Assembly (NCBI GenBank): GCA_008632985.1
Contig: QPGO01000198.1
Location: forward strand, 1 to 64,000
Direction: 5' to 3'
DNA length: 64,000 nt
Source of the DNA: Psammoneis japonica
Taxonomy: Eukaryota
Under the pieces are notes generated by a model that worked only from the letters and a program-made list of their open reading frames with translations, did no database searches and had not been told where the DNA came from. Position 1 is the stretch's first letter. The number at the start of each line of letters is the position of its first letter. The position numbers and the translations under genes are program-made. Shown piece by piece: positions 7,338 to 64,000 of this stretch.

Positions 7338-7799
7338 ATCAATCAGGCGTATGACTTCCCCAGCGCTCCAAGACTCTCTCTAGAGTAGATTACATTTGTG
7401 AAGTGAATAACCAGGCCTCCAAAGCAAACAAAGGCAACGTCATCTAAATTTTTCCCTTTGCTCTCTACATAGAGGATTGATGTTCTGCGTGCCGTGAGGA
7501 TCTTGCTACTGTAGTTCTCAGGAAAGATTCTCTACTCTAGCTAGAGGTCTGTCTGCCTGCCTGTCGACAACGATCTGTAAAGCACAGGGAACTATCGACG
7601 GTACCACACACACCTTCAACCTTCGCAAACTGACAACTGACTGAACACGATGTTGTGTCATCTTATCACTTCTATTCATCTCGCTGCTGTTTCCCTCCCG
7701 AGAACCTACTCCAGATCAATAAAGCCATCGTATGGACCAGCAGTCTCAACTCTAAACAGCCTCTTATGCGAGAGCAGTGCTCCACAAGTGCACTTCGTC

Positions 7800-8768
7800 A
7801 TGAAAAAACAATGCCTTCTCTGCGGCGCCATTTTGAGCGCAATTCTTTCCAGTCTCGTATGCAGCGCTTTCACGCCGCATTCCAATGCTGCGCGTTCGAG
7901 ATATGAATTCGTATTGCACAGGAGAAAACAACCGGTGGAGCAAGTGGACGTGATCACTGGTGAAGTTCTCGAAGCATTTTCGTCCATGAAAGAAGCTGAA
8001 AGAATGGTCGGTGTTTCCCAACAAAACATTTCTGCGGTTCTTGCGGGAAGAGCCAAGTCAAGTGGTGGTTATTGTTGGCGTCGCCCTGGCGACACAACGC
8101 CACCACCAAAAAGAAACAAGCACACGAAAGCAGTGGAACAAGTGGACATTGAAACGGGCCAAGTTCTTGCGGTTTTTCCGTCGATGGTTGCTGCCGCACA
8201 AGCCCTGGGAATCCGCATAGACGGAACATCACGCGTTGTGGGAGGTTGCAAAGATCATTGTTTCTACAAGGGTTTTTTCTGGAGAGAGGCAGGGGACACC
8301 ACAATGCCCAAGGTGCGGTCAGACAAGAACGCAAAAAGCATTTCCCGCTTGAGACAAAAAGTGGAACAGGTGTGTCCTGAAACAGGGACCGTTGTTGCCA
8401 CATTCAATTCATCACAAGAAGCAGCAAAAGAGTTGGGAACACCACAGCAGACAATCTCAAAAGTTGTGAGAGGGATGCGGAAGATGGCAAGAGGACATCA
8501 TTTTCGAAAAAAAGGCAAACCCGAAAAGTTCAAAAAGTCCAACACAGCACGTCCAGTGCAGCAGATTTGCCTCAAAAGTGGCAAACTCTTAGAAACATTT
8601 CCTTCCCAAAATGCAGCTGCAGATGCAGTGGGCGTGACCAGTGCAAGCATCAGAAGTGCCGCGATTGGTCACACCAAAAGCAGTGGTGGGTGTGGTTGGA
8701 GACACGTTGCGTTTCAAGACGAAGTTCGCAATGTGGAAAGCAATGTTGTGGGAAAGAAGAGAGGTTGA
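7800..8768 (+). CDS. Plastid-targeted 4x NUMOD1/IENR1-like HTH protein, copy 1 (ORF open but lightly hypermutated)
   Basis: Near-identical to 19769..20737, with LY>LH, YYW>YCW, KY>KH, GYH>GHH and GYG>GCG changes. Confidence 0.7.
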   Translation: MKKQCLLCGAILSAILSSLVCSAFTPHSNAARSRYEFVLHRRKQPVEQVDVITGEVLEAFSSMKEAERMVGVSQQNISAVLAGRAKSSGGYCWRRPGDTTPPPKRNKHTKAVEQVDIETGQVLAVFPSMVAAAQALGIRIDGTSRVVGGCKDHCFYKGFFWREAGDTTMPKVRSDKNAKSISRLRQKVEQVCPETGTVVATFNSSQEAAKELGTPQQTISKVVRGMRKMARGHHFRKKGKPEKFKKSNTARPVQQICLKSGKLLETFPSQNAAADAVGVTSASIRSAAIGHTKSSGGCGWRHVAFQDEVRNVESNVVGKKRG

Positions 8769-9737
8769 CTAGCACGTGTTGAGCGACGCGACGGCAACTT
8801 TGAGACATGCGTTAAAAACCGGTGTTCCGTTGCGAATTTGGCTGTTTCATTTGTAGAAACGCAAACCTCAGCTCTCGGGCATTCTACACTTGGCAAGCTG
8901 CAATGTGTGGATGGTGTTAGAGAAGATAGAAAAAGGCAGAGAAGAAACGTTCAGACTCCCATTTTCTTCCCAAACGAGAATCCAGAATGTGGAACAGGCT
9001 TCTTTTACGATCTGGGAGAGATGCGAGGGAAAAGTTTGAGCAGAGAGGCAGGCACCTGCTGGTCAAGCGTGTCAACCATGGAGTTACAAATCACAGGGCA
9101 CTGTCAATTTGACGACAGTGAACGAGTTGCGATTGAAAAGCTGACGCAAAATGACGCAATCTTGCACCAAGCTGCCAAATGGGCATTTTGGAACAAGGTT
9201 GACTTTGTAGAGAAACAACACTCCATAAAACTTTGTTGAATAAATCAGGCGCATGACTTCCCCAGAGCTCCAAGACTCTCTGGAGTAGATTGCATTTGTG
9301 AAGTGAACAACCAGGCCTCCAAAGCAAACAAGTGCAATGTCATCTCCCTTTTTCCCTTTGCTCTCTACATGGAGGATTGATGTTCTGCGTGCCGTGAGGA
9401 TCTTGCCAGTTCTCAGAAAGATTCTCTGCTCCAGCTGCTGGCAGCTGGTGGCCCAGCTAGAGTGGACTGAGTAAAAGAATGCACACCATGCCATCTGAAA
9501 CACAATGATCTCTAAAGCACAGGGAGCTGTTGACGGCAGATGCCACGCACTCCTTTGCAAATGCTGAGCACAATGTTGCAATGTTGTGTCATCTTTCATT
9601 GTTTCATTGTTCATCTCGCACCGCTGTTTCCCTCCCAAGAACCTGCTCCAGATCAACAAAGGCATCACATGGACTGGCAGTCTCAACTCTAAACAACCTT
9701 TCATGCAACAGCAGTGTTCAACAAGCCTGACTTTGTC

Positions 9738-11126
9738 ATGAAAAAACAGCGGCACCTTCTCTGCAGCGTCATTTTGAGCGCAATCATTTCCAGGTCTTGC
9801 GTGCAGCACTTTCATGCTGCATTGCAATGCCGCACATTTGAGATGTGAACTCACATTGTGCAGGAGAAAACAACTGGTGGAGCAAGCAGACATGAACACT
9901 GGCGAAGTTCTCATCTTTTTGCATGTGACAGAAGCTGGAAGAAGAATGGTCGGCACAGCCCAACCACACATTTCTGTGGTTCTTGCAAGAAGAGCCAAGT
10001 CAGATGGTGGTCATCATTGGTGTTGCCCTGGTGACACAACAAGACCACCAAAAAGAAACAAGAACATGAAAGCAGCAGAACAAGTGGGCATTGAAGCGGG
10101 CCAAGTTCTGAGTTTTTCCTGATGGTTGCTGCCGTGCAAACCCTGGGAATCCACCTGGGAGAACATCATGCATCATGGGAGGTTGCAAAGATCATTGTTC
10201 CTCCACTGTTTTTTTTCTAGAGAGAGGCGACATGTTCCAGCTCCAGGTGGGACCTTGTGCCACTGAACTGTGACATCAATGGTTTTTTTAAACGCATCGC
10301 ATGTCGCGCACGTGTGCATTTCTGCATGTGACATTCTACGAAATTGTTTCATGCTTCCTGTTTTGCAAAGCCAAAGGCTTTTTATTTTCAACATTTGTGA
10401 GAGTGAAAATGCACTGGGTGTGTTCTTTAATGTCTGCAGAACACACCCGGGCAAACTGTTGATGATGTGCTCTAGAAGTGTGAAGGAGAAGATGCGTTCA
10501 CAAAATTGCCTCTTTTTCTGTTGGCAATCATTTGTGCTCTCATTGCTTGACAAATTTACTGCAAAGCTTGCACGCAGAATTCCACGGGCCAAATGTCACA
10601 TGGAGTCCCACCCAGCAGGGCTGGAACCCGCCAGGTGGGGGACACCACAATGCCCAAGGTGCAGTCAGGCAAGAATGCAAACAAGAGCATTTCCCACTTG
10701 GGACAAAAAGTGGAGCAGGTGTGTCCTGAAACAGGGGCCATTGTTGCCACATTCAATTCATTGCAAGAAGCAGCAAAAGAGTTTGGAACACACCACAACA
10801 GACAATCTCAAAAGTTGTGAGAGGGGTGAAGAAGATGGCAAGAGGACATCATTTTCGAAAAACAGGCAAACCCAAAAAGTTCAAATGGTCCCACAGAGCA
10901 CATCCAGCACAGCAGATTTGCCTCAAAAGTGACAAACTCTCTTAGAAACATTTCCTTCCCAAAAGGCAGCTGCTGATGCAGTCAGCTGGTGTTTCCCATG
11001 CAAGCATCAGAAGTGCCATGATTGGTCACACCAAAAGCGGCGGTTGTTCTGGATGGAGACACATTGTGTTTCAAAACGAAGTTCACAATGTGGAAAGGAA
11101 TGTTGTGGGAAAAGAAGAGAGTTTGA
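9738..11126 (+). pseudogene. NUMOD1 gene copy 2: heavily mutated, frameshifted and interrupted by a MITE
   Basis: Colinear with copies 1 and 3 (RRKQLVEQADMNTGEV; VGDTTMPKVQSGKNANKSISHLGQKVEQVCPETG), with indels and a ~400-bp insert. Confidence 0.9.
10231..10630. mobile_element. ~400-bp MITE-like insertion with ~25-bp imperfect terminal inverted repeats
   Basis: Absent from copies 1 and 3. Left end GTTCCAGCTCCAGGTGGGAC; right end GTCCCACCCAGCAGGGCTGGAAC (reverse complement GTTCCAGCCCTGCTGGGTGGGAC). Confidence 0.75.
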
Positions 11127-12729
11127 CCAGCATGGCTTGAGCAATGCAACAACGGAAACTTTGAGACATGCAATGACAACCAGCACTCCACCGCAAATTT
11201 GGTTGTTTCATTTGTAGAAACGCAAACCACAGCTCTCGGGAATTCCACAATCAGCAAACTCCAATGCATTGATGGTGTTGGAAAAGACAGAGAAACAGGC
11301 AGAGAAGAAACGTTCAGACTCCCATTTTCTTCCTGAACGAGAATGTCCAGGATGTGGAACAGGCTTCTTTTGCAATGTGGGAGAGGTGCAAGGGAAAAAT
11401 TTGAGCAGAGAGGCAGGCACCTGCCAGTCAAGCGTGTCAACAATGGAGTCACAAATCATGTGGACACTGTCAATTTGACTCACAGCGAACAAGCTGCGAT
11501 TAAAAAGCTGACGCAAAACAATGTGCTCTTGCATCTGGCCACCAAACGGGCATTTTGGAACAAGTTTGAGTTTGTGGAGAAACAATCCTCTGCAAAGTTT
11601 TGTTGAACAAATCAGGTGCATGACTTCCCCAGAGATCCAAGACTCTCTGGAGCAGATTGCATTTTTGTGAAGTGAGCAGCCAGGCTTCCAAAGCAAACAA
11701 GTGCAATGCCATCTACTCAGAACACTGCAATTGCCACTTGGCCAATTGTTGAGTCCCTTCTCCGCACACACATTTAGGCATGTGTTGTGCACAGCATCAT
11801 CACACAGCATTTGTCCAACTCATCTCACTTTTTCCCTTTGCTCTCTGCATGGAGGATTGATGTTCTGCATGCCATGAGGATCTTGCCAGTTCTCAGAAAG
11901 ATTCTCCACTCTGACAGCTGGCAGCCTCTAGACTGAGCAAGAGCAAAGAACACACACCATCTGACACATGAGGTGTGTCTGTCTGCCCATCAACAATGAC
12001 CAGCAAAGTGCAGGGAACTGTCGACGGTGGATGCCACACACACCTTCAACATGACAATGTTGCGTTGATGTTGTGTCATCTTTCATTGGACTCTCTAGAG
12101 CAGTGCAGTCATTTTCAGCATCTGCGGAAAAATCATGTTTTTTGTGGTGGAGCCGCGTTTTCATGCAAAAGCGCAAAAACCCATGGGCCTTTTCGCACAG
12201 CACAGCCATGCAGAAGCACAAAAAGCATGAAAAGCACACATGCCTTGTGCAGCCAGAGCAATTTGTTGCACAAAATTGCACACGAGTGAAGCAGTGGTGG
12301 GACCATGATGATGCCATCTGACATGAATCACAACAGAGACCAAACAAGTGGGATGCTGCTGTTCATTCAACACATGCATGCTGCCAACAATGTCACCCTC
12401 AACATTGCCATGCCTGCAATTGTCATTTTCAGGGGCCTCCAAAAAACCACCTTGTGGACCCGAGTCTGGGAGGAGTTCCTTCTGGTGGCTTGGGCCTGTC
12501 TTGCAAAGGCAGACCGGGCTCACAATTGTCCAAGATTTTTTTCAGTTCATTCTTGTGCACACAAACTTGCCCACCAAGGGAAAGGCAAGCAGGAAGCTTT
12601 TGTTCTTGTCCTTTCCTGCTGCCCAGTTGTTTTCAAACCTCAGGGCTCACCCCCTCAAACTCTGACATCTTTGCCGCGCATCTCTCCTCCAGATGCTTTG
12701 CGCATGCAGACAGGTTGTTCTTGTCCACT

Positions 12730-14600
12730 TTTTTTATTTTAGAGTTGTCTTGTCCTCCTCATGGGCCACATGTTCAACAAGCTCCAATGTGTGCTTGAGC
12801 AGAGACTTCTCAGTTGTGCCTTGTGGAGCTGGGATGTTTTTCCAAGAGCCGGGGTCATTGTGAAACTGCCGGTCTTTGAACAAATCTTTCAACAACGTGG
12901 CAACCATCATTTTCTTGTTGTCCTTTTTCTCAGGCACAGCCTTGGCTGCTGAATTGTGCGCCAAAGTTCTCGCAGCTGCTGGAAACAAATCCTGTGGGGT
13001 GGTGGCAGTGGCAGCACCAGTTGCAGCAGTGGCAGCACTGGTTGCAACTGGCAGAGCTTGTGCAGGTGATGGCACTTCCAGTCTTGGGCTCTTGTTGCTT
13101 GTCTCTGTGTTGCTGGTTTCTCTGGGGCGCTGTCTTGATCCCCTGGCTCCCGGCAGTCTTTTCAACAGCAACAGCTTGCTTCATGACACCTGCAGTTCTT
13201 GTTGTTGCTCCTGCATTTGCTGTTGTTGCTGGTGCAGTGTCATTTGCAATGAGGCAACAGTGCAATGATCAGACTGTTTTTCTTGCACCAGGGTTGCCAT
13301 CATTTGCTTCAGTTTGAACAGCACATTTGACTGTTGATTCACAGCTGCTGTCACTTGGGCCTGCCCTCCGCCTGGAGCAATTTGGGCCATTTCTGGATTG
13401 TGCTCTCGGAAGTCTTTCATGATTGTGGCAGACCCCACTCATCAAGAATGGCCTCTGGAGAAATGCCTGGGAAGTGGGCATTGGAAAGGCTTGCACTTCT
13501 GGCAGCAGTGCAAAGTTTGGTCACCACTGCATTGTGGTCTTTGCATTCTTGGGTGACTCGGACATGACACATCATCAATGATGCAAGTCCTGTCTGAAGG
13601 ATTTGGTGCAGCCCTCTCTGCTTGTCTTTAAATCCTTGCATTGAAATGACAAAGTTTTTGTCAGCTGTTTCTCCACCTGTGCTGCAACATGAATTCCCAG
13701 GCTCTCGAGTCGGGGCACCCTTGTGTCGATGTCGACGTTGTCATGTCGATGAAGGGCCTTGGCAGCTCTAAGTCCCAGCACAAACAAAGTGAAGTTGGCA
13801 TGGGAATCCAAGGAGGTGCCAGCAGTGTGCCCTGATCAGGAACAAATGTCTGCAATTCCAATCAAAGGGTGAGCCATGAGTTCTGTGATGGAGCCGCGTC
13901 ATTCAGATTTGGCTGAAAACGTCTTTGCAAGATTTTCGGAACAACCATTGGGCAGATTTGTCCTTGCACTTGTGAAGATCTGGAAAGACAAAGTTGGCAA
14001 TGGCCTGCTTGTCTGCACCAGAATGAAATGGGCCACCCTCCATGGCCCAAAATCTTGCCATGCAATGACAGAAATCCAGGAGAAATTCAAGCCGGTGCGG
14101 GACCATTGCCATGGTGCACTTTCGGAGCAGCTTGAGCTCCACCCACCCAGTGTCTGTCACTTCAAAGAAAGGATGCCATTGCCAATCAATGCAGCTGTTG
14201 AACTTAATTTCAACACCTCGACCCACCACAAAATGCAGCATTGCAAGCCAACATTGCTGCTGCAAAGCTCCTTCCCTGTTGCACAGCAGGGTGGCTTTGT
14301 CAAAAAGCTTTTTGACAATGCTCAGGAGATCAATCTTCTGAAGCAAGGTTCCAATGTCATCATCAGGTGCAATGTGATTGCCGCAGAAGAGACGATTGTC
14401 CTGATGGGGTGGCTGGGTGGTGGCATTGCCAAAAACGTGCATTCGCCACCTGGAGACGTGTGGAGCCGAGTGCACTCTCTTTCAAAAGTGGGGTGCATTC
14501 TGCTCCACCACTCAGGCACCTCAGATGGCCTCAAGCCTTGAGTCCAGGTGGTTTGGAAATTTTTCATGCAAGAACTTGATGACCTTCCCAGTGCATTTTG
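12730..14600 (-). pseudogene. Decayed tyrosine-recombinase (Crypton-like) coding relic
   Basis: Minus-strand reading FSAKSE*RGSITELMAHPLIGIADICS*SGHTAGTSLDSH near 13.8-13.92 kb resembles YR box II (HSxRRG..T..RxGH/W..Y), with the catalytic Tyr position read as His. Recognised by eye only. Confidence 0.45.
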
Positions 14601-15239
14601 AGAGAGACGATGCCATCACTGGCTTGACGGGCTCATCTGCATTGTGACTCCTTGGGGGGGAAGGTTGGCATCAAAGTTTGCTGGAGTGGGAGTGGTGGAA
14701 ACCCACAAACAGAATTGAAACATCCTGCTTCCAAATTCTTGCTGTCAGTTTTGACAAAATGCATTTGAGCTGTTGGCAGCCTGCCCATAAAATGGCAAAA
14801 CACCTTGTGCAGCCTTGTTGCCACCCTGTTGGCTTGGGCCGTGCTGCCAGCATCTCCCATGTTGTGGCCCAACTGACCAGGCAGAGAAGGTTGCTGGCTG
14901 GACATGGTGTCCACAACCAACAACGCGACAATGCGATGACGACAATGCAACAATGATGCAACGTGCGACACACTGCTGCCAATTTGCATTGCCACCAATG
15001 ATGATGTCAATGCATTGTCTTGTGCATTGGCATTGGGCATTGTGCATTGTGCCCTGGAGGTGCCCCATGCGCAAAAACCACAGAAAGATTGCCACACAGA
15101 CTCTGGCACAAATTCCGTTTTTGCACAGTTGTCGTGTGAAAATGGGTCAGTGCAGAGGGAAAAATCTGCAACACCCCCCCCCCCCCCCCCCCCCCCAAAT
15201 TTGAGTTTGCCCAAAGCACAACTTTGACCACACATTTGC

Positions 15240-15885
15240 GCAGAATCACAAAGTCAAAAAACCACAAAAACATGCAGGACTCTGTGCAAATCCAGTGCAA
15301 AACAAATGCACGGCTGCCCTCTTCACACCACGGTGAAGCAAGGGGCAATCACAAAAATGTGCCAACAGCTTTGATCACTGTTGTTGGCATTGTCATTCAA
15401 CTGCACTCATTGCTGTGACATTGCAAGCCTCTGAGTCATCTGCCGGTGCCAAGATTGAGCTGCCGTGAATCATCAAACTGTCGTCATCCGCAGTGCAACA
15501 TCCTCAAGGTGACTGTGAGGTGTGACGGGCTTGAGGACTGAGGACAAAAAAATGCTGGGGTGCTCCAATTGCTTCCTCTGCTGGTGCTTTGGCATGTGCT
15601 CTGGTGAGCATGGCACACATCTTCTAATTGTTGCCACATGCTTCAATTCCAATGTTTTGCTTCGGCCAACATTTCCTCCATTTGGGCTTGTCATCCACCA
15701 CCACCCACAATCCACAATGCCCTGCTGCCATGCAATGTGAGAGGGTTCATTGCGTTTGGTTGCACAAGGGGTTGCAATGAGATGATGGACTGCGGCACCA
15801 TCCCGACTTGACAAAGGAAAAATGCACTAGACTTGTGTAGAATCCTGCATGTTTTGCTGTTTTTGGACTTCATGATGAGGAGCCT
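15240..15885. repeat. Inverted repeat pair (~60 bp) bounding ~640 bp; possible further nested MITE
   Basis: AAGTCAAAAAACCACAAAAACATGCAGGACTCTGTGCAAATCCAGTGCA (~15251-15299) versus the reverse complement of TGCACTAGACTTGTGTAGAATCCTGCATGTTTTGCTGTTTTTGGACTT (~15823-15870). Confidence 0.65.
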
Positions 15886-16399
15886 CATGGTGCACCAGGA
15901 GCATGAAATTCATCACTGAACAACACAGCTGCACTTCTTAAATTGACACTTTGGTTGGTTTAGAAGGGTTTCACAGTCTCAAAGTTGTTGCGTGCAAAAA
16001 GATTGAAGATTGGCGCAGCAACCCAACCACGCATGTTGCTGCCTCCAATCACAGTTTTTGTTTCACCAGACAAAAATCTTAGCACAACCAAACAAACCAA
16101 CATGTGAAATGGACCAAACTGACAGATGAAGAGTCATTCCAGTTGTTGTTGGGTTCCAAGTGGAGCAACAATGCAAAATCGACACACAGTGGGTTTTCTG
16201 GCGGACACATCCGCGAATGAGGGCGCAACGCAAATCACACCAAACCACAATGATGCATCGCCAAATGAGCCCAAAATGTGACGGAACAAATCAAATGTGT
16301 CAAAACAGCAAATGAGCAAATCATTCCAGCTGTTTTTGTTGTGTTCCCAAGTTGAGCCATCATGCACAATCGACTCAACACAGTTGCAGCATGCCACCA

Positions 16400-17120
16400 A
16401 TGAGGGTGAGACGTGAGATTGATCGCGCTCAATGGCAAGGACACACAAACAGATGATTCAAGTGTACAATGACACTCCACAATTGCTCCAAAAAAGTCAT
16501 TCCAGATTGTTTTGTCAAGTTCCAAGTCCAGCTCTTGTGCACTGTCAACGTGAAAGAGGTTCCTGCATGCTCAACTGTGAGGATGAGATGCAAGACCGTG
16601 AGGTCAACGCTCAGCTGCAAGAATTCATTGACAGATGATTCAAATGCATGACAGCACTCCACAATTGTTCCATGAAAGTTGTTCCAGAGTCATTTTGTTA
16701 AGTTCCAAGTCAAGCTCTCATGCACTGTTGACGTGAAGCAGTTCCTGGGCACCCAGCCACAAGGATGACACGCTAGACCACGAGATTGATGCTCAACTGC
16801 AAGGACACATTAACAGATGGTTCAAACACACGATGGCACTCCACAATCATTCCATGAAAGTCGTTCCAGAGACATTTTGTTGAGTGTCAAGTCCAGCTCT
16901 TGTGTGCTGTCAACATGAAGTGGTTCCTGTGCACCCAACAACAAGGATGACACGCTGGACCTCGAGATCGACACTCAACTGTAAGGACACATTAACAGAT
17001 GGTTCAAACACATGACAGCACTCCACAATTTTTCCACAAAAGTCATTCCAGAGATGTGGTGTCAAGTTTCAAGTCCAGCTCTTGTGCGCCATTGACTGGA
17101 AGCGGCTCCTGCATGCTGTG
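16400..17120 (+). repeat. Tandem repeat, 4 x 182 bp
   Basis: Anchor CACTCCACAAT at 16473, 16655, 16837 and 17019 (exact 182-bp spacing). Confidence 0.9.
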
Positions 17121-18289
17121 TCCCTGAATGATTGGCAGTGCTGGTCACTGAGGACACCCCCACAATCCACAACTCAATCCAACTCACTGACAAAGCATCA
17201 ACACTGCAAAAAATGCAATGCCAACACCTTGCTCTGGAACATGAAAAAAAACAAATGACTGTGAGCAGGTGACACAAGGGCAGACACCACCCCAAAAACA
17301 TCAAAACACGACTCTGCACCATGTGGTGCACAAACACAACTTAACATGATCAATTTTCTCACCATGATGTCATGATGTGTGCATGTCAGTCAAAGGATGG
17401 GGATTCTTGGCGAGCATCACAGAGACGAACGCCATTTTCACCATTGATGATTTTTGAATTTGTGCTCTTGTCATTGGAAATGCACCACATTCTGCGCAGT
17501 GCAGTCTGACAGTGATTGATTTTGGGCGGATGGACACTGGCAAACTCCCCCAGCAAATGAAATTGAGCGTGACGCACATCTGCGGGGCTTTCTACGGGGC
17601 GTGAGAGACTGCTTGTTTTCGCGGGAGGCTTGTGCAAAAGTTGTGCTTTCGGCAGTTGTTTTTTTATTTTGGGGGTGTGTCGCACAATTTTTTCCCTGTG
17701 CACTGACCCATTTTTGCACGACAACCTCACAAAAACGGAATTTGTGCCACAGTCTGCATGGCAATCTTTCTGCAGTTTTCATGCATGGGATGCAGGCTTC
17801 GCACAAGACGACAACACTCAAGACGACACATTCATCATCGTTGGTCATTGGTGCTGTGGCGCAAATCAGCGGCGCATCGTCATTGCATCAATCATGGCAG
17901 TGTCAACAATGAACCAAGAGCGGCATGTGCAGAACAATTGTGAGAGGATTCTCACTTGGCAACTGTCACTTTGAGGCTGCTGGATGAACTGGATGTGTCT
18001 GTGTCTCTCACCAAAGGCGTCCGCATTGTTTTTCAGATCAGACCATCTCTGCGTGTGACATCGCAGCGTCAGCGATTGACAATGATGTCTCTGACAACAC
18101 AATCAAAGCATGCGGTTGGTTGGATGATTAAAATGACAATCACATGAGCACTTGTTCGAAAATTGAAATTGCTGAGTTACAATGGAATGGTGTTGTTCAT
18201 GGGGTGTGGAGGGCTCCGTCGGGGTCTTGCAGCTCACTCTGTTGGCTGTGGCATTCGTGGTTTGGGATCTCCAAGTCAATGGCTTTTTC

Positions 18290-18760
18290 TCTCTTTAGAG
18301 TTTTGGAAGAACAAAGAGCAGCAGTGTTGGAAAAAAGGCAAGAGCGTGTCATTGAAATTGCCCCATGAAATGTTGTGCGTGCTCATTCATTCTGTTTCTT
18401 TTCTGCATCTGCTCCCAAAGGACACCACACCAGCTTTTGCGGACGGCGATGGTCTTTCTTCTCTTTGAAGTTTTGGAATGATGAAGAGCAGCATCATTGG
18501 GAAAACAGGTGCATGTGTGTGGTTGGAACTGCTGTGTGATGTGTGCGAGCACTCATTCACTCTGTTTCTTTCCTTCTTTTTTTCGTCTGCGCCTGCAGGA
18601 CACCGCAGCTCTCGCGGATGGCAGTGGGTCTTTTCCTCTTGGATTCTGGAAGAAGGAGCAGCAGCATTGCAAATGAAGCATGAGCGTGTCATTGTAATTG
18701 TGCACAAAGCACACGAATGCTCATTCATTCTGTTTCTTTCTGTTTGCGCTTGTTCTTGTG
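18290..18760 (+). repeat. Diverged tandem repeat, ~3 x 170 bp
   Basis: Anchor CTCATTCA.TCTGTTTCTTT at ~18382, ~18552 and ~18720. Confidence 0.75.
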
Positions 18761-19768
18761 GGTTTGGTTTCACATCGGCATTGTTGTTGGCGGGACCGGT
18801 GCACCATTTCTTTCATTCGTTTCCTTCATCATGTGTCTCTCTTGACCCATTCTTGATGGCTCTTTGGCAATGGAATGTGTCAAGGGAGAGGCAAAGCTTT
18901 GACAGCAACTTGTCGGGGAGTGTGGCTTGATTTTGGGGCGGCTTGTTTGCAAGAGAATTCCTCGTGTCACAGCTTCCACAGGAAACAAAATGCACTTGCT
19001 GGTTTCTGCACTGCCTGCCAAAAAAGGCACTCCTAAGATCCAAGCCTTGGGCGATGTTGCTTTGTTTAAACTTTCCCACAATGTTTGTCTCACAGACGTT
19101 GCTTTCCCTTTCCTGAACATTCCCACCAAACCACCATTGTGCGCGGCAAACATCATGCATTGAATGGCTCCCCCCGCTCAATTCTCGGTGATTGACATGT
19201 CACAAACAGTTGATTGGAGGGAAGCCTTCATAGCATTCTGACAATCAAGGCGTGAGATTCCCCCTTCTAGAGCATCGCACCATCGGCGGGTGGTGGATCG
19301 GCGGCAGCCGTTGTCGATTTGCTCGACATCATCATTGTTTGGACCGCAAACAACCAAATCTTCCGGCATGAGACGCAGCTGAAATTTCACAGCAATGTCT
19401 GTCGATCTGCAGTGTCCGAAGTTTTAAATCTCATTGCAGGTTTAGCGGCAGCAACGCAAGGTTCGTCATTGTCGACAACATGCCGGCACGGCAGTGACAC
19501 CAAACCGAGGTTTATTTTGGATCTTAGCCGCACAAGGCGCGCGTGCTTTTCGTGCTTCCGCGAGCTTCGCCGTGCAAAAGGCCGTGGGTTTTGCGCTTTC
19601 ACGTGAAAACCACGATTTTTCCACGGATGATGACGAAAATGACTGTGTTCATCTCGCGGCTGCTGTTGCCGAACCCACCCCAGATCAATAAAGCATCGTA
19701 TGGACCAGCAGTCTCAACTCTAAACAGCCTCTTATGCGAGAGCAGTGCTCCACAAGTATAACTTCGTC

Positions 19769-20737
19769 ATGAAAAAACAATGCCTTCTCTGCGGCGCTAT
19801 TTTGAGCGCAATTCTTTCCAGTCTCGTATGCAGCGCTTTCACGCCGCATTCCAATGCTGCGCGTTCGAGATATGAATTCGTATTGTACAGGAGAAAACAA
19901 CCGGTGGAGCAAGTGGACGTGATCACTGGTGAAGTTCTCGAAGTGTTTTCGTCTATGAAAGAAGCTGAAAGAATGGTCGGTGTTTACCAACAAAACATTT
20001 CTGCGGTTCTTGCGGGAAGAGCCAAGTCAAGTGGTGGTTATTATTGGCGTCGCCCTGGCGACACAACGCCACCACCAAAAAGAAACAAGTACACGAAAGC
20101 AGTGGAACAAGTGGATGTTGAAACGGGCCAAGTTCTCGCGGTTTTTCCGTCGATGGTTGCTGCCGCGCAAGCCCTGGGAATCCGCGAACAAGGAATATCA
20201 CGCGTCGTGGGAGGTTGCAAAGATCGTTGTTCCTACAAGGGTTTTTTCTGGAGAGAGGCAGGGGACACCACAATGCCCAAGGTGCGGTCAGACAAGAACG
20301 CAAAAAGTATTTCCCACTTGAGACAAAAAGTGGAACAGGTGTGTCCTGAAACAGGGGCCGTTATTGCTACATTCAATTCATCACAAGAAGCAGCAAAAGA
20401 GTTGGGAATACCGCAAACAAAAATCTCGACAGTTTTGAGAGGGATACAGAAGACGGCAAGAGGATATCATTTTCGAAAAATAGGCAAACCCGAAAAGTTC
20501 AAAAAGTCCACTACAGCACGTCCAGTGCAGCAGATTTGCCTCAAAAGTGGTAAACTCTTAGAAACATTTCCTTCCCAAAATTCCGCTGCCGATGCAGTGG
20601 GCGTGACCAGTGCAAGCATCAGAAATGCCGCGATTGGTCATACCAAAAGCAGTGGTGGGTATGGTTGGAGACACGTTGCGTTTCAAGACGAAGTTCGCAA
20701 TGTGGAAAGCAATGTTGTGGGAAAGAAGAGAGGTTGA
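19769..20737 (+). CDS. Plastid-targeted protein with four NUMOD1/IENR1-like HTH DNA-binding repeats (intact copy 3)
   Basis: Signal peptide MKKQCLLCGAILSAILSSLVCSA|F (ASAFAP-type); four repeats of the form (P/K)VxQ(V/I)xxxTGxVLxxFxSxxxAAxxxGxxxxxISxxxxGxxKxxxGYxW(R); retains Tyr codons. Confidence 0.85.
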   Translation: MKKQCLLCGAILSAILSSLVCSAFTPHSNAARSRYEFVLYRRKQPVEQVDVITGEVLEVFSSMKEAERMVGVYQQNISAVLAGRAKSSGGYYWRRPGDTTPPPKRNKYTKAVEQVDVETGQVLAVFPSMVAAAQALGIREQGISRVVGGCKDRCSYKGFFWREAGDTTMPKVRSDKNAKSISHLRQKVEQVCPETGAVIATFNSSQEAAKELGIPQTKISTVLRGIQKTARGYHFRKIGKPEKFKKSTTARPVQQICLKSGKLLETFPSQNSAADAVGVTSASIRNAAIGHTKSSGGYGWRHVAFQDEVRNVESNVVGKKRG

Positions 20738-51900: not shown

Positions 51901-52189
51901 AAAGTTGCGTGGCTTCTTCTTTCCCACAAGAAAGCCAATTCTGCCTTTGTTTCACGGCCATGCCCTCCACATGGTTTTCTGCGCAAGCTCTGGCACAGAT
52001 GTCGCCTTTTTCTGACGGTGCAATGATGGTTCTTACCTGCCTGTTCAGATGTGTTCCTTTGTCGACATGCCATTGTTCTATGATCATTGACAATCTCATG
52101 CAGTGGAAAACGAATTGCACCCAGCTCTCTTGGCTCAATCGCTCGACGTTTTTCTCGGCATTTTTTGTTCTCGCGTGCAAAGTTTCTGC

Positions 52190-57357: not shown

Positions 57358-58295
57358 TTATGGAAACACTTCCTCCAACTTTCCAGTCGCAAGTAGTATT
57401 ATCCACATTATTCCAACCAGAATGCTCAAAGCCGCCGAGAAACACTCGACTCGGAACTCCCATTGTGAATATCGCCCAACCCTTGAACTACAACTTCCAT
57501 ATAGCGCAGCAAAGCAACCCATTACCAATGTAGACGAAAGGCAAAAGCTTCCCAAGTAGAGCGAGGAGAGTCTCCAGTCTCGGATTTGTACGGCTGGAAT
57601 TACTCCCAAAACTCCCCCTGGGCCGGCTAAGCCATGGATAAGTCCAATGCCTACCGAAACTGTTTTCGTAGATAGATTCCGAGCAAATCGTACAATCGAA
57701 TCTTTTATTGACACATCCATATCGAGGGGCTGCATTTCAATCTCCACACGATTCACTTCAACATCCTGGCAGGTTCTTCTGGAAGAATTTTCGTTTGTAC
57801 TTTCATGATCCGCCATTTTTTCATCCTGAACAGTCAAGGGCGCCTCGTCTACAGTCGAATCATCCTCTGATAACACATCTTGTGACGGTCGCTTTTGCCA
57901 AGCTCGAAACACACCGAACACTCCAAGAGCAAGCATGAATACTCCAACCAGGGACTCAAACACGATTGTCACAGTGTGCGGAACTTGCACCTCATCCTCA
58001 TCTCGACTACTGCTTACCACAATTAAAATCATCCCCACGAGCAAAAGCCCGGTCGAATGGCCGATACCCCATCGAACGCCCAACGAAAAGGCTTGACAAT
58101 AATTTCCCACATTGGCACTCAGTGTTGCCAACGCCGAGAGATGATCGGGTCCAGTCAAGACGTGTGCAGCACCAAGAGCCTGTGGTATAAAATGCAAAGA
58201 GTGAGCATGCTTTTTTCGTTGTAAATTACACGTGACAACACAACCGCACGCACCACTCCCGTTCCGATCAGCGACAACGAGGAACTTGCTCCCAT
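57358..58295 (-). CDS. UreH/NicO-like nickel/cobalt transporter-family membrane protein; exons 58295-58254 and 58179-57358
   Basis: HVLTGPDHL, RWGIGHS and G.IHGLAGPGG motifs, multiple TM helices; a GTGCGT..CAG phase-0 intron joins MGASSSLSLIGTGV to ALGAAHV. Confidence 0.8.
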
Positions 58296-58748
58296 GATTT
58301 GATCTCCACTCTTTTCAGAAACAATATCTACTGACTGGTCAAAGCTTATAGTGTCTGTGACTCGTGGACGACCAAAACGAAGCGAATCTACCGCAGTGTG
58401 GGATGGTAATGCGTCTGGAGCTCCCGATGATTCTATTGCGACATCATAGCACGGGCATGAAAGGTTGAGTATCAAGGGATTATCATACCGTACGTACATA
58501 CCGTACCTACACAAGGAAAAAAACCGGTCTGTCCTCTTCCGACCGGTCTGTCCTCTTGCAAGAGCAAACTTTGTAAAGCGACTTTTGGAGTGGCTTCCCA
58601 ATGTCTGACACGTGAACCCAATCTACAAGCATCCGTCAGAAGGTCAATGGAGATCTCGGCGAAAACAGCGGAATGAATGTATGTTGCATCACAGTGCAAT
58701 GGGGGGCCAAAAGCGGCACATCATCGCCACTTTCTAAGAAAAATCTGC

Positions 58749-59024
58749 TGACAGAAATTGAAGGCAAATGGCAAGAATTCAAACAATGACTCCTCACTGC
58801 TGTCTAAATGGCAGATGAGTCTCCGCTCAGAGACCGTTGCAGGAGCCGAAAGACGTGTAAGTCGGTATAATCGGGCTACTGTCATTATTCTTGTGAGCCT
58901 TGTGGCTCGAAAGCAAACTACATCGCGCGTGAACGCGCGGAACTAAAGCACACAAAACTGTGCGCGGTAAACTAAACAGCGCGCGATGCTTCGCGCGCAT
59001 CCAAATCCTGTTCAAATCCTGTCA
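58749..59024 (-). repeat. 3' LTR (~276 bp) of the Copia element
   Basis: Ends TGACAGAAATTGAA / TTCAAATCCTGTCA form an imperfect inverted repeat with TG...CA; preceded on the minus strand by the purine tract GGGGAG (59025-59030). Confidence 0.75.
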
Positions 59025-62000
59025 CTCCCCAGTTTGCTTGAGGAGCCACAGAAACAGATTCGACTTCGGATGGAATGAAGTTCCAGAACATGAGGGGCGG
59101 AGAAGGTCCCAGATTTGGGAGTGACCCCAATGCTTGCTGAGAATGTCAGCAGGGTTGCGGGAGCCTTCGATGAAGTGGAGCTCAAGGTGACCAGAGGCAA
59201 TTGCCTCACGCACACGGTGGAACGACAGTGCGGTGTGTCGCTTGTGTAACTTGGAGTGCGGGATGGTGGCACTGTCTACAACCGACTTGTTGTCACCGAA
59301 CATGCAACTGACATTGCGGATCGGGACGCCAAGGTGGCGCAGGGTGATGCGCAGGTCGATGATCTGCTCAACACAATTCCTTGCGGCAACAAATTCAGAT
59401 CCGCAGGTTGCAGTCTCCACGGTGGCTTGTTTCTTGGAGAACCAATCAGCCGGGAATTTGTTGAGGAAGTGGAGCATTCCCATGACAGAGCGTCCGGTGA
59501 GCATGCAATGGTGCAAGTTTGCATCGACGCAGTGGGTGGCAGTGACGAACTTGCCAAGGGGCGGTGGAGCGTCCTTCGGGATCATCTCTTCTGCTTCACC
59601 ATGCACGGAATGCATCCATTCACAGGCCGGAGCAGGGAGCTCCGAACAGTCGGGCTCTTCCGTGCGAACGCGGAGAGCACCGTGTCGCATCTTGGAGAGG
59701 CACCCACAGACGCGTTTGGCACGATCCAAGTGGCCTTGACGGGGTGCAGCTCGGAAGCTAGAGAGTGACATGACAGCCGTGGTGATGTCAATTTGACCAA
59801 GGGACACTGCCCATTGGAGTGAACCAACAAGAGACTGGAACTTGTGAATGCCATCGGGTCCCAGCAGTTCGGAAGTGTCCAGTTCGGGGTGGTCACCCTT
59901 CTCTAGAGGTGACAGGGCGTTGGTGGCAGGTTTCTCCCCAAACAGTCGGGCGCAGCTGTCGACCATGCGCTCGATGTACTTGCGCGGAGACAGGCACAAG
60001 GTTCCGTCGGGGTCCCGGGAAAAGTCGCAACCCAGATGGAACTCAATGGGTCCCGCACCCTTGAGCTTGAACTTGTGCTTTTCCGTGAGAGTGTCGACGA
60101 AAGATTGAGGGTCCTTCATGGCAATGGCCAGGTCATCCACATAAACGGCAATGTGTTCACAGTGGTCGCCGTTCCTGCGCATCCAAATGTCGGGTTCGGC
60201 GCGGCAGGGGAAGAAGCCTTCAGCTCGCAGGCAGTCGGCGAAGCGCTCGTGCCAGCGGAGACCGGAGCTGCGCAGTCCATGCAGTGCCTTGTGGATGACA
60301 AGGATGTGTCCTTCGAGTTTGCCAAATTCGGGTCCAGCTGCAATGTAAAGCTTCTCCTTGGTGGTGGCTTCAAGGCAGGCATTGCCAATGTCGGTGGCCC
60401 ATGTCTCCAGCTCGTTGAGTTCGGCCAGGAAAATCATCAGCCGAAGGCCACGGAGGGAGACTGCTCCGGAGTGGACACTGTCGATGGGTACGTCCGTGAG
60501 GTGCCCGTCGGCTACGAGTCGTGCCTTGTGGCGACCGTCGTGTTTCACGTCGCACACCAGGTGCACTCGGATCTTCTTGTGTCCCGCAGGAGGAGCGGAA
60601 GACTTGAGGGGCCCGCAGTCATGGAAGACTTCGCATTCGTCGAGTTGGTCCATCTCGAGATTAGTTGCGTCTCCCCACTTGCGGTTGCCGTTGCGTTCGT
60701 CTAGTGACATGGCGTGTTTGCAGTTCCGGGGAACTTCGCATCCGTACTTGTGGCGAGGTGCAGTGCGGAAGGAGCGAAGCTTGGCTTGGCTGGCCATGCG
60801 AAATAGCTTCTTTTGGCGCCTCGCGACAGTGCGGAACCGCTTCCAGCCATCCGTGTCGAGGAGTCCGTTCTCTCGTGCATAGATGGCACAGGTGACGGGG
60901 TCGTCCTTGGTGATGATGGCAAGAGGCTCGGACGTGATCTCCCCACTTTCCCATTCAAGCATGATGTTGTAGCTTGAGCCTTTCCAGGTTGGGTCGTGAG
61001 GCTTCAGAGGTCCTTCGTGTGACACGATGCGTCGAAATTTCCAAATGGTGGTGTCTTCGTCTTCTTGCTCAATGTGATTCATGATGTCATTGTAGGCAAG
61101 GACTTCCTCGTGTTCGTCATTGTTGACAGAGCAGACGAACTCAGTGAGCTCGGGATTGCCGTTCACTTTCCATTCGTGGTCTTCGACGGCCTTGATGATG
61201 CGAGCTCTGTGGCGTTGTCCGTCCTCTTGTGGCTGCATGAGGAAGGTGCGTCCAATGATGTCTTGCGGATCGAAAACTGGCATCTTGGGTGTCCTGATCT
61301 CCCCATCAGGAGAATCGACGGGGTTGTCGTCATGGCGAGATTTGATGATGGGTTCAGGTGGCTCCCCATCAGGAGGATCAAGACGCAGGTTTCGAACGGC
61401 AGGATCGGGGGCAGCAGAGCGAACGTTGGACCGGTGGAGGATCTTCTGAGTCTCGTCAGATGGGACCTTGAAGGTCATCTGGTGGCCGACGTGCTCAGCA
61501 ATGCCAACGAAGCGTCCACGCAACTCACGGGATTCGGACGGCCAATCGGAGTCATCGAGGTGGAAGTGCACTGGTTCCCACCAGTGAAAGCGAAGCAATG
61601 GGCTGATGTCCGGGGTGGATCCAGTGAGAGTCTCGAGGGGCATGCGCCAGTGGAGACGTGGGGACGCTGTGTGGTTGAGCATGAAGCACACGCACATGAG
61701 CGCCAGCAGCCATGTGTGGGCGGGCGAACCAAAACGATCCATGACAGTGTTCGCCATGCGCTTCACGGTCTGGTGTCGACGCTCGGCAAAGTTTTGGTGT
61801 TGCTGGTGAGGCTCACTTTGCCAGCTGGAGATGAAGAGGGCGCGTGGGATCCCGAGCACTTTGTTGCTGATCTCAACTTGAGCACGGTCGCTAATGAGTT
61901 TGGATGGGGCACCACATTCACGGATCTGATCCTCGAGTGTGTTGACAAACTCTTTGTCCGTCTCAGTGCCGTAGACGTCAGTGACGGTAGACTCGGTGCC

Positions 62001-64000
62001 AACAAACAGTTGGGCGCTGGTGCAACCAGAGTCGACGGCCGGGGTGTCGGCATGAACGGTGTCAGTGGCGACAGGCTCGTTGCGGCGGTGCACGTTAAGG
62101 GCGGGGTTGGGTGATTTGTAGGCCTTGCGAAGGTGTGTGCCGGCGGGCATGCGGGCGTGCTGCGTGGTGCAGTCAAAAGTGCGACGGACCGCATCGGCAG
62201 GTAGGAAGCCAAAGCAAGGCCGAAGAGACTCGAAGGGGGGGTCCTTGGGCTGTACAGTGCGCTCCGGAGGTGGAACGTCATCGCCCTTGGGGTCAATCGC
62301 ATGCAGATGACACTCGTAGAACACGTCATCGTTCGGAATGAGGTGATCATCGAGGGCGGACGCGTGATCGGCAGACAAGGAAGCGGACAAGATGGTCTCG
62401 TTGACAACGACACGGTGACGGCAGTTGCCGCATTCGTCAAATGGGTTGGCAGTGGGATCGTCCTGCAGGTCAGAGATTGCGTCGTGCCACTGGTCGTCGT
62501 CAGTGACAGAGTGATCGAGGACGGAAGGGTCCCATGTGTCATCACCGGTGAGGATGACATGGGGCAGGGTGTCCCATTCGGCGTCAGTGCAAGGTCGCAT
62601 GGCAACATAAGGCAGGCCAGCCTTGATGTCAATGGGGATGACATAGCCATCAGGAGTGGCAATGCGTTGCAAGCCGTTGGGCACCTTGACAGAGCGATCG
62701 TTGACATCCTGTTTGTGCCATTTGAGCTGGCCACAGGAATGGATGGTCTTGCCCTTTCCCGTGCATGCATGCTGATGGAGGATGGCGATGACGGGACCAC
62801 GCTGGGTCTCAATGACGGCACCAGCGGTGACAATGGGGATGTCCACCAATTGATGATCGTCAATGCCCTGAACGTCGACTTGGCGAGAGGTGCGTGCAAT
62901 GACGCGAACGTCGTCGCCAGCAATGCCGCCGTTGGCCCCACGATCGACTAGAGCGCCAGTGCGTGTGGAGCGATGAGCAGAGGCAGAGCAAATGACATTG
63001 TGGTTGTTGACGCGGCGGCAAGTGCGGCCGTCAAGTTCCATGTCATCTGCAGAAGCTGGCGGGGTAGAGGAAGCGGCGGATGGCCCCGGTCGACTGGCAT
63101 TGGGGGCTTGGTTAGGGGACAACAGACGTTGCAGATCACCGGGTGGCAGTGGCTTGCGCTTGGTGAGGTGCGCCAGGATGGGATTGTCCGAAGTGGCGTC
63201 CACATGTGTGGCGGAGTCACCACAGTCAGCAGGAGTCGTGTTGGACAAGTTGACATCTCCGTCACTCCCAAGGTGTTGGTCGTGAAGGTTGGCCGTAACA
63301 GACTCATGGCAGTCACTGGCTCGCGGGTTGCGGGGAGGCGGACGACAGTGCTCAAGGATGATCGCCTTGGAGGAATCGGGCAACGAATCCCAGAGCCGTT
63401 GGTGGTCGGGAGGGAGACGTCTCCATTGGACACCGGTGAGGCTGGGACCGCGGGTGTGGGCAGCATTGGCTTGAAGGACGTCAACGTCGCTGTCAATGTC
63501 ACAGAACACATCGTCGGACGGTTCCTCGGAGCAGACGTCATGTGCGCACATGGCGCGTCGGGGAGCTCGAGGTGTCGTCTTGGGTTGAAACGTGCTGTCG
63601 TACTGAGCTGCCGCGGAGAGGAGCAAGCCACAGCATTGATCGTATGTGAGGCTCTTGCCACTCTGCGTACGATGCTGATCAGCTTGGTTCTTGACAGCAC
63701 GGAGTTCCTCGACAGGGTGCACGGCATTCTCGAGCATGACGCGCTTCTGTCCTTCAGAGAAGTGGTCACTGGCGGGGATGAGTGCCTCGCACTTGCGCAA
63801 CTGATCTTGCCAATGAAGGATGAACCCGTGGGTCGGACCTTTCCAAGTGCCATCACCAAGACGTGCGGTGGTGAGGTACGTGAGCAGGGTGGAGGACTCG
63901 ACAGATGCACGGGTGGAGGCAAGCGCGCACTCAGACAAGGAGCGGCAGACGGTCTGTGCGTCAGAAGACCCCACATTTTCGCGAATGAGAGCCTTGCCCT
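59022..64000 (-). CDS. Copia gag-pol polyprotein, ORF open but hypermutated and probably inactive
   Basis: Protease LVDRGANGG, integrase ATDT..SDRAQVE..QNFAERR, RT YVDDL, RNase H VDAN..GSEF..GDNKSV..NPADILSK; many normally conserved Tyr read as Cys or His. Confidence 0.92.
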   Translation of the reverse strand, partial: GKALIRENVGSSDAQTVCRSLSECALASTRASVESSTLLTYLTTARLGDGTWKGPTHGFILHWQDQLRKCEALIPASDHFSEGQKRVMLENAVHPVEELRAVKNQADQHRTQSGKSLTYDQCCGLLLSAAAQYDSTFQPKTTPRAPRRAMCAHDVCSEEPSDDVFCDIDSDVDVLQANAAHTRGPSLTGVQWRRLPPDHQRLWDSLPDSSKAIILEHCRPPPRNPRASDCHESVTANLHDQHLGSDGDVNLSNTTPADCGDSATHVDATSDNPILAHLTKRKPLPPGDLQRLLSPNQAPNASRPGPSAASSTPPASADDMELDGRTCRRVNNHNVICSASAHRSTRTGALVDRGANGGIAGDDVRVIARTSRQVDVQGIDDHQLVDIPIVTAGAVIETQRGPVIAILHQHACTGKGKTIHSCGQLKWHKQDVNDRSVKVPNGLQRIATPDGYVIPIDIKAGLPYVAMRPCTDAEWDTLPHVILTGDDTWDPSVLDHSVTDDDQWHDAISDLQDDPTANPFDECGNCRHRVVVNETILSASLSADHASALDDHLIPNDDVFYECHLHAIDPKGDDVPPPERTVQPKDPPFESLRPCFGFLPADAVRRTFDCTTQHARMPAGTHLRKAYKSPNPALNVHRRNEPVATDTVHADTPAVDSGCTSAQLFVGTESTVTDVYGTETDKEFVNTLEDQIRECGAPSKLISDRAQVEISNKVLGIPRALFISSWQSEPHQQHQNFAERRHQTVKRMANTVMDRFGSPAHTWLLALMCVCFMLNHTASPRLHWRMPLETLTGSTPDISPLLRFHWWEPVHFHLDDSDWPSESRELRGRFVGIAEHVGHQMTFKVPSDETQKILHRSNVRSAAPDPAVRNLRLDPPDGEPPEPIIKSRHDDNPVDSPDGEIRTPKMPVFDPQDIIGRTFLMQPQEDGQRHRARIIKAVEDHEWKVNGNPELTEFVCSVNNDEHEEVLAYNDIMNHIEQEDEDTTIWKFRRIVSHEGPLKPHDPTWKGSSYNIMLEWESGEITSEPLAIITKDDPVTCAIYARENGLLDTDGWKRFRTVARRQKKLFRMASQAKLRSFRTAPRHKYGCEVPRNCKHAMSLDERNGNRKWGDATNLEMDQLDECEVFHDCGPLKSSAPPAGHKKIRVHLVCDVKHDGRHKARLVADGHLTDVPIDSVHSGAVSLRGLRLMIFLAELNELETWATDIGNACLEATTKEKLYIAAGPEFGKLEGHILVIHKALHGLRSSGLRWHERFADCLRAEGFFPCRAEPDIWMRRNGDHCEHIAVYVDDLAIAMKDPQSFVDTLTEKHKFKLKGAGPIEFHLGCDFSRDPDGTLCLSPRKYIERMVDSCARLFGEKPATNALSPLEKGDHPELDTSELLGPDGIHKFQSLVGSLQWAVSLGQIDITTAVMSLSSFRAAPRQGHLDRAKRVCGCLSKMRHGALRVRTEEPDCSELPAPACEWMHSVHGEAEEMIPKDAPPPLGKFVTATHCVDANLHHCMLTGRSVMGMLHFLNKFPADWFSKKQATVETATCGSEFVAARNCVEQIIDLRITLRHLGVPIRNVSCMFGDNKSVVDSATIPHSKLHKRHTALSFHRVREAIASGHLELHFIEGSRNPADILSKHWGHSQIWDLLRPSCSGTSFHPKSNLFLWLLKQTGE

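Follow-up and report, generated by a model that had tools for sequence, protein, structure and literature searches.

How does a retrotransposon come to possess an uninterrupted reading frame of 1650 codons with only 15 tyrosines (Tyr) in it? The question is raised by a Ty1/Copia-type long terminal repeat (LTR) retrotransposon at the end of the 64,000-nucleotide stretch of diatom DNA that was analysed here as a whole, hereafter the window (Psammoneis japonica, assembly GCA_008632985.1, contig QPGO01000198.1, positions 1 to 64,000 of the forward strand). In the window and in related sequences we find a mutational process that is directional, specific to TpA, balanced between the strands, limited to certain regions and unfiltered by selection, and that is separate from the decay of CpG and runs ahead of it. 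Taking the two statements together, we regard it as probable that the window copy is a dead copy of a very abundant Ty1/Copia-type family, and that a TpA-specific process turned about five in six of its TpA dinucleotides into TpG or CpA. The evidence from the host consists of the comparison of this one 64-kb window with the contigs of one sample.

Loss of tyrosine and TpA from the element

The open reading frame (ORF) of the element occupies the right-hand end of the window:

59022..64000, minus strand: gag-pol ORF of the Ty1/Copia-type LTR retrotransposon; 34 TA in 4976 bp, CpG normal, GC 57–60%; 5' side cut by the end of the window

Its composition was compared with that of its 120 best database relatives (49–61% identity, mostly 1.7–1.9 thousand amino acids long). 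The 15 Tyr of the element make up 0.91% of its residues, against a median of 3.87% and a minimum of 2.86% in the relatives; cysteine (Cys) accounts for 49 residues (2.97%; median in the relatives 0.90%, maximum 1.28%) and histidine (His) for 89 (5.39%; median 3.56%, maximum 4.28%). The residues that replaced Tyr can be read from an alignment with 60 relatives, in which 716 columns are at least 80% conserved. At the 41 columns where the conserved residue is Tyr, the window copy has Tyr at 11, Cys at 16, His at 11 and phenylalanine at 3, that is, Cys or His at 27 of the 30 changed columns. Other conserved residue types are retained at 82–100%, and the contrast in retention between Tyr and these residues is strong (Fisher P = 9e-35).

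At the nucleotide level, the observed/expected ratio (o/e) over 59022–64000 is 0.15 for TA, 0.91 for CG, 1.55 for CA and 1.28 for TG, and the GC content of the element region is 57–60%, compared with 45–52% elsewhere in the window. Relative to its closest relative, locus L001, the ORF has a TA deficit of 195, an excess of TG plus CA of 225 and nearly the same number of CG (367 against 381). About 34 TA are left, where intact relatives have a median of 216. Counted by codon phase, the remaining TA number 15/10/9, and the 26 relatives with intact ORFs have medians of 64/57/95 and minima of 52/28/37. Tyr codons, in which the change is always nonsynonymous, have thus been depleted about as much as the largely synonymous TA positions, and this loss in all three phases argues that the changes were not filtered by selection and reflect neutral decay rather than adaptation.

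The two products also report on the strand that was hit, since TAY to TGY (Cys) is an A>G change on the coding strand and TAY to CAY (His) a T>C change. Summed over six hypermutated copies, the ratio of Cys to His is 43:50 (binomial P = 0.53), a balance which indicates that both DNA strands were affected. No preference for flanking bases was seen between kept and mutated codons among 137 Tyr codons.

Conversion of TA to TG or CA makes no stop from any sense codon and removes TAA and TAG. The coding frame contains 0 stops, and the five remaining frames contain 6–10 TAA or TAG and 9–74 TGA each. Because such changes cannot yield stops, the open frame is no evidence of function or of youth. The non-coding frames of the element (59913–63998, both strands) also contain ORFs of 248–394 amino acids, which exist because TAA and TAG have been destroyed.

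The assignment to Copia was made from the RT domain. The ORF proper (59022..63974, minus strand) encodes the 1650 amino acids, with no stop before the end of the window, and matches the Pfam model RVT_2 (PF07727) of Copia-type reverse transcriptase (RT) at amino acids 1129–1340 (E = 3.4e-24; score of 86 bits, with the cut-off at 31.6). This was the sole match in a Pfam search up to E 5: models for rve, protease and gag gave no hit, and PDB sequences searched with a family profile yielded no matching chain. The RT lies near the C-terminus, with about 1100 residues ahead of it and about 310 behind, the latter leaving space for RNase H and too little for an integrase; the putative order protease, integrase, RT, RNase H was read from position and from motifs recognised by eye. 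The ORF aligns with its relatives to about 10–25 residues short of their C-termini, and about 200 N-terminal residues fall beyond the window. No second copy of the ORF was found within the window by tblastn.

An earlier note, made from the DNA letters of the window, had counted about 15 Tyr in the 1650-residue ORF and had quoted six peptides as places where Tyr is the normal residue. The count is exact (15, or 0.91%), and all six peptides have Tyr at that place in a consensus of 21 sequences. Its reading of the losses as TAY to TGY or CAY products in an element where CG is still abundant is borne out by the 27 of 30 Cys or His replacements, by the CG o/e of 0.91 and by the directional changes between paralogues described below (19 versus 1), and the codon logic, with which the stop counts agree, upholds its proposal of inactivation by missense at Tyr without new stops. 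The description of the element as caught in mid-inactivation is, by contrast, too mild, given that about 34 TA remain against a median of 216 and that 30 of the 41 conserved Tyr are lost, some of them invariant residues of the RT. The only signs of a limited age of the copy are its normal CpG content and its freedom from frameshifts.

Other copies, paralogues and domains of TpA loss

Contigs from four runs (X1–X4) of one sample, possibly the source of the window itself, were mapped to positions 57500–64000. Summed contig depth, which is not equal to copy number, is about 58 over the flank at 57500–58367, 58,000–123,000 over the ORF and 130,000–402,000 over the bins covering 58585–59018, a contrast that points to a family of very high abundance whose terminal repeat is more abundant still. 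Relative to the window copy, run X1 has 327 variant places, comprising 71 A>G, 71 T>C, 86 G>A, 55 C>T and 44 transversions. Their sequence context was classified in the best 40 of the 327 variant rows, two of which lie in the low-depth flank beyond the outer end of the LTR and were excluded. The other 38 rows represent 30 sites, of which 17 are of TA type, 7 of CpG type, 2 other transitions and 4 transversions. The earlier note would have given up its reading if CpG transitions equalled or outnumbered TpA transitions among copies; in these best 40 rows it is the TpA transitions that predominate. Many of the rows are adjacent pairs of T>C and G>A, with TG in the window and CA in other copies, an alternation expected from independent hits on an ancestral TA. 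One codon in the RT illustrates this:

60471..60473, minus strand: codon 1168 of the ORF; Tyr in 60 of 60 relatives, CAC (His) in the window

In the other copies, T is found at base 1 of this codon in 69% of the summed depth and G at base 2 in 57%, which, if no CGC is present, corresponds to about 57% TGC, 31% CAC and 12% TAC. At codons 1077, 668 and 619, where the window copy has kept Tyr, TGC makes up 61–65% of the depth. The window copy is thus no exception, since mutation has affected the abundant family as a whole and has led to differing outcomes at the same sites.

The signature also occurs in genes of another kind. A NUMOD1/I-HmuI-like DNA-binding gene, which carries no retroelement domain, has tandem and dispersed paralogues in the window (7121–12088 and 19646–21114) that show a graded decay of TA and then of CpG. 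The three paralogues and the largest TA-depleted domain are as follows:

7641..8765, plus strand: paralogue A, NUMOD1/I-HmuI-type gene, partly TA-mutated relative to C; TA o/e 0.22, CG o/e 0.85
9608..11295 (start approximate), plus strand: paralogue B, next to A in tandem and strongly decayed; TA o/e 0.08, CG o/e 0.34
19724..20734, plus strand: paralogue C, taken as the reference state; TA o/e of the segment 0.45, CG o/e 1.03, Tyr 3.3%
8001..19500, no strand: largest TA-depleted domain, mostly CpG-depleted too; left edge inside paralogue A

Paralogues C and A differ at 74 positions in 1255 bp. A TA in C corresponds to TG or CA in A in 19 cases and the reverse holds in 1, while CG changes number 10 against 2 in the reverse direction; of the 10 Tyr in C, A keeps 3 and has His at 3 and Cys at 2. 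These directional pairwise counts replaced a three-way parsimony polarisation of the paralogues, which was misleading owing to recurrent hits at the same TA sites. Toward the right, from about 7,800 on, A is changed more and more densely as it runs into the TA-poor domain of 8,000–19,500, which places the edge of the domain inside a gene copy. Because these paralogues lack any retroelement domain, they provide independent evidence from within the window and support action in situ. A further repeat pair (1185–1714 and 49393–49923; 77 differences in 529 bp) has no directional TA signal, with 2 changes against 4.

Across the window, 57 of the 128 bins of 500 bp have a TA o/e below 0.25; among these, CG o/e is below 0.5 in 36, intermediate in 8 and normal in 13. 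None of the 128 bins combines normal TA with a CG o/e below 0.5; low CG is found with intermediate TA in a single bin. Thus, CpG loss is nested within TA loss. The earlier note had held that older blocks lack both TA and CG, as the 36 doubly depleted bins do, and that the TpA process is separate from CpG decay and precedes it, for which the 13 plus 8 low-TA bins with normal or intermediate CG, the 0 bins of the reverse kind and the CpG-only decay in other hosts (10 of 80 loci, below) now speak. The low-TA bins coincide with repeat blocks, and host genes (RPB1, GAF, kinase, HupE-like) have a TA o/e of about 0.4–0.8, so that the loss is confined to selfish or foreign DNA next to normal host genes, with the exception of the element's own LTR, which was spared.

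The old TA-poor blocks contain ORFs of 200–570 amino acids with 0–0.5% Tyr and 5–9% Cys, and no Pfam match was obtained for ORFs in the old TA- and CG-poor blocks. Tandem repeats of about 182 bp (16318–17117) and about 240 bp (52176–52885), whose copies are 66–79% alike, lie inside TA/CG-depleted blocks. Among the genes of the window, RPB1 (27124–31610) identifies the host as a diatom, being 81–85% identical to diatom RPB1 (named matches include Attheya, Odontella and Chaetoceros). Its heptad-repeat tail (31717–32453) seems to be a series of similar short exons, each with a terminal splice donor of GTGAGT type, at a spacing of about 150 bp (repeat family D5, 6 copies). An ORF of 658 amino acids at 21577–23550 on the minus strand has six helicase-associated domains (HA, PF03457) and normal TA.

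Beyond the window, 80 Copia loci from metagenome contigs were examined; the set is biased against mutated copies, as Tyr was part of one of its two search patterns. TA o/e is at most 0.31 in six of them (L040 0.01, L069 0.15, L047 0.24, L046 0.27, L061 0.31 and L039 0.31) and 0.45–0.95 in the remaining 74. Five of the six (L040, L069, L046, L061 and L039) have undergone bulk replacement of Tyr by Cys or His while keeping 85–93% of other conserved residues, and the other 75 loci have 0–1 Tyr to Cys and 0–3 Tyr to His changes each. CG o/e is at least 0.76 in five of the six TA-depleted loci. A CG o/e below 0.3 (0.04–0.25) is found together with normal TA in 10 of the 80 loci, suggesting that TA-directed mutation is host-specific and that CpG decay is widespread and able to occur alone. 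In a tree of the RT–RNase H part with Tyr, Cys and His masked (79 sequences, L061 and one further locus having been left out for not covering this region), the hypermutated copies are dispersed over the Copia tree, each beside normal relatives, with the window copy as sister to the normal L001. This arrangement of hypermutated copies beside normal sisters argues against selection.

The sixth TA-depleted locus, L047 (3–1241), behaves differently. Its Copia ORF of 413 codons has TA solely in Tyr codons (phases 15/0/0) and a normal Tyr content of 3.6%; the expectation for the other two phases is about 30 TA, and 0 are present. To judge from its sequence, L047 looks like a functional, selected lineage that purged every avoidable TpA under TA-directed pressure.

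Mechanism and alternative explanations

In the mechanism that we propose, the self-complementary step TpA is hit on either strand and its A:T changed to G:C. Following a mutation-accumulation study of the chlorarachniophyte Bigelowiella natans (Mettrop et al., bioRxiv 10.64898/2026.01.13.699255), we infer that the process would act on chromosomal duplex DNA in situ, within silenced domains of repeats or foreign DNA, and that its chemistry is most likely enzymatic deamination of the adenine in TpA to inosine, which is read as G, as has been proposed for B. natans. A fast early burst would be followed by slower deamination of 5-methyl-CpG in the same domains. In rough terms, the window copy has about 16% of its TA left and its CG at about 100%, and the old blocks stand at about 5% of the typical TA o/e and about 15% of the typical CG o/e, a combination that misfits constant parallel rates and points to an early burst. 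The outcome would be inactivation by missense, chiefly Tyr to Cys or His, with no new stop and a rise in GC, the mirror image of the fungal process of repeat-induced point mutation (RIP).

Several observations weigh against this mechanism, and the main one comes from the 3' LTR and its neighbourhood:

58749..59024, minus strand: 3' LTR, 276 bp, recognised by its 6-bp terminal inverted repeats (TGACAG...CTGTCA), a step in depth and the loose ends at 58748
57358..58197, minus strand: single-copy host gene with a weak HupE/UreJ-like match, adjoining the LTR; TA normal, depth about 58

The LTR begins at the TGA stop of the ORF, behind a short G-rich tract. Its other end was set at 58749, since loose ends accumulate at 58748 and positions 58657 and 58719 still have a depth of about 330–350; the same observations ruled out a boundary at 58606, where TGTCA occurs by chance. 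The 5' LTR, the primer-binding site and the target-site duplication would fall past the end of the window. The segment 58548–58748, between the end of the LTR and the single-copy flank, has a depth of about 330–800, some 6–14 times that of the flank, and may be a low-copy repeat or the remnant of an older insertion.

The LTR is not depleted of TA: it contains 10, at a genome-typical o/e of 0.57, where 1.9 would be expected at the density of the internal region (Poisson P = 3e-5), and none of its positions is among the best 40 of the 327 variant rows, despite the depth being highest there. A spared LTR is not predicted by a process that acts on the whole inserted element. In addition, a single mutated state makes up 86–100% of the family depth at some sites, which accords equally with inheritance from templates already mutated and with independent hits, and to which site-specific bias may contribute; and the window copy taken alone leans toward A>G on the coding strand, with a TG excess of 130 versus a CA excess of 95 and 16 Cys versus 11 His. 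The sparing of the LTR could be due to a chromatin boundary beside the adjacent single-copy host gene, to small-RNA targeting of the internal region alone, or to editing during reverse transcription. It is not general, since the stretch downstream of the ORF is TA-poor in L069 and L040 and not clearly so in L046 and L039.

The last of these possibilities is part of a different account of the whole element, in which an ADAR/ADAT- or APOBEC-like deaminase edits the genomic RNA, the single-stranded cDNA or both during replication, so that insertions arrive already hypermutated, as APOBEC3G-edited proviruses do. The spared LTR suits this account, as editing by APOBEC3G reaches its minimum immediately 3' of the polypurine tract, the part that becomes double-stranded first, and so do the majority states of 86–100%, which suggest inheritance from templates, the abundance of the family and the slight coding-strand excess of A>G in the window copy. 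A single edited intermediate, however, predicts a single outcome, and the two strand outcomes are about equal (43:50). Tandem paralogues that are not retroelements share the signature, and the depleted domain ends inside one of them; L069 and L040 are TA-poor after the ORF as well; and the B. natans process acts on resident chromosomal DNA. We consider replication-coupled editing unlikely for these reasons. A deaminase might also be dispensed with altogether if a base modification or lesion at TpA, limited to certain regions and persisting in poorly repaired heterochromatin, were miscoding or mis-repaired; 5-hydroxymethyluracil, N6-methyladenine and the ultraviolet TA* photoproduct are candidates. 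Such a cause would need the TpA step alone to give a symmetric signature, in keeping with the lack of flanking preference in 137 Tyr codons, and the depleted domains are also those that later lose CpG, presumably as methylated, silenced DNA. It would, however, have to operate at a very high rate to bring TA loss near saturation with CpG and other sites almost untouched, and the B. natans rate, about 1000-fold above background and on in some lines only, looks regulated. We therefore find a lesion or modification of this kind quite improbable.

Two further explanations concern whether the changes are mutational damage at all. Low TA together with Cys and His might be features of an active, functional lineage that avoids TA adaptively. 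L047, with its phases of 15/0/0 and 3.6% Tyr, demonstrates that selection-filtered TA loss exists in this group of elements, and the 1650 codons of the window copy are free of stops and frameshifts. An open frame is expected regardless, as TA to TG or CA makes no stops; Tyr codons were lost about as much as synonymous TA (15/10/9 versus medians of 64/57/95), a Tyr of the RT that 60 of 60 relatives share has been replaced, and the same sites carry different residues in other copies of the family, all of which makes adaptive avoidance very improbable for the window copy. That the signature was produced by assembly or by base calling at modified TpA in repeats is scarcely credible. The runs that contain the stretch do all come from one sample, but 65% of the 31-mers sampled from it occur in the contigs of run X1, where short contigs match it with 0–1 differences, and the signature is also present in 5 metagenome contigs from other records and in old blocks whose amino-acid similarity has already been erased.

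The TpA-specific process acting in situ on duplex DNA can be set in a wider frame, to which, taken as a whole, we give slightly less than even credence. Diatoms would possess a dedicated genome-defence mutator that deaminates adenine at TpA in the duplex DNA of silenced repeats and foreign sequences, a 'reverse RIP' shared with chlorarachniophytes and possibly ancient in the stramenopile, alveolate and rhizarian (SAR) group. It would act in a burst before methyl-CpG decay, kill through Tyr codons without making stops, and be engaged in an arms race with retrotransposons, as L047 may exemplify, in which LTRs may be shielded.

Comparison with known systems

TpA-directed, GC-raising hypermutation of selfish DNA had previously been shown in one chlorarachniophyte alone. 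In the two integrated viral regions of B. natans that mutated in mutation-accumulation lines, A>G and T>C changes account for 230 of 231 mutations, each of them at TpA; the process runs at about 1000-fold above background in some lines only, an ADAT2-like candidate is proposed, RT domains are enriched among TpA-depleted coding sequences, and ADAR is stated there to prefer a 5' U (Mettrop et al., bioRxiv 10.64898/2026.01.13.699255). The diatom signature resembles this in several respects: (i) the change is A:T to G:C at TpA only, giving TpG or CpA according to the strand; (ii) foreign or selfish DNA is targeted within sharp local limits, and depletion of TpA is coupled to enrichment of CpA and TpG; and (iii) RT and DDE domains are enriched among the TpA-depleted coding sequences of B. 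natans. It differs in that the host is a diatom, that is, a stramenopile, and in its targets, which comprise a Copia family of high copy number and duplicated genes of cellular type; the evidence here is comparison of sequences, that in B. natans mutation accumulation. The nesting with CpG decay, the spared LTR and a relative purged of avoidable TA are seen here and are not described in the text of that preprint, which makes no mention of diatoms, stramenopiles or retrotransposons. A literature search for TpA depletion or hypermutation in diatoms returned no report, the 2026 B. natans preprint being the only match to the signature, and a term search of the CoDi paper (Maumus et al. 2009, PMC2806351) found no mention of hypermutation, RIP, deamination or dinucleotides. 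Relative to these sources, what is new here is the diatom lineage, the retrotransposon and paralogue targets, the order relative to CpG decay, a candidate counter-adapted element and the sparing of the LTR.

If the diatom signature is what it appears to be, the process is not peculiar to one species and extends to a different and ecologically dominant lineage, its targets go beyond integrated viruses to retrotransposons and duplicated genes, and it is distinct from, and faster than, methyl-CpG decay. As some diatoms are genetically tractable models, a direct search could be made for the enzyme behind the process, which may be a natural adenine deaminase of DNA. The practice of annotation is affected too. 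Hypermutated elements retain long ORFs in more than one frame and are likely traps for gene prediction, liable to be mis-annotated as intact genes, and dating by LTR or Kimura divergence is badly biased unless TA-type sites are excluded.

RIP of ascomycete fungi is a further counterpart. It changes C to T, mainly at CpA, and thereby creates TpA, AT-richness and stop codons. Both processes riddle repeats with one dinucleotide-specific class of transition on both strands and inactivate transposons in place, but the diatom element has A>G at TpA, which destroys TpA, raises GC and makes no stops; with a TpA o/e of 0.15 and a GC content of 57–60%, it has neither the C>T at CpA nor the TpA enrichment nor the AT-rich product of RIP. 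In B. natans a single-copy insert is affected, a further difference from RIP.

APOBEC3 and ADAR, which convert C to U on minus-strand cDNA and A to inosine on double-stranded RNA, respectively, both leave a strand-asymmetric record in the integrated copy. The diatom case shares with them a deaminase-type hypermutation of retroelements; the preference of ADAR for UA fits TpA, and a minimum of editing at the LTR would fit the spared one. It departs from them in its affected non-retroelement duplicates and in its balance of strands, which is 43:50 overall and 16:11 in the window copy alone, in place of the asymmetry of replicative editing. Finally, diatom transposable elements can carry CpG methylation, and the decay of 5-methyl-CpG leads to the same end products, TpG and CpA, in the same domains of the window; its substrate is CpG, it is slower, and it occurs alone in 10 of the 80 Copia loci, which belong to other hosts.

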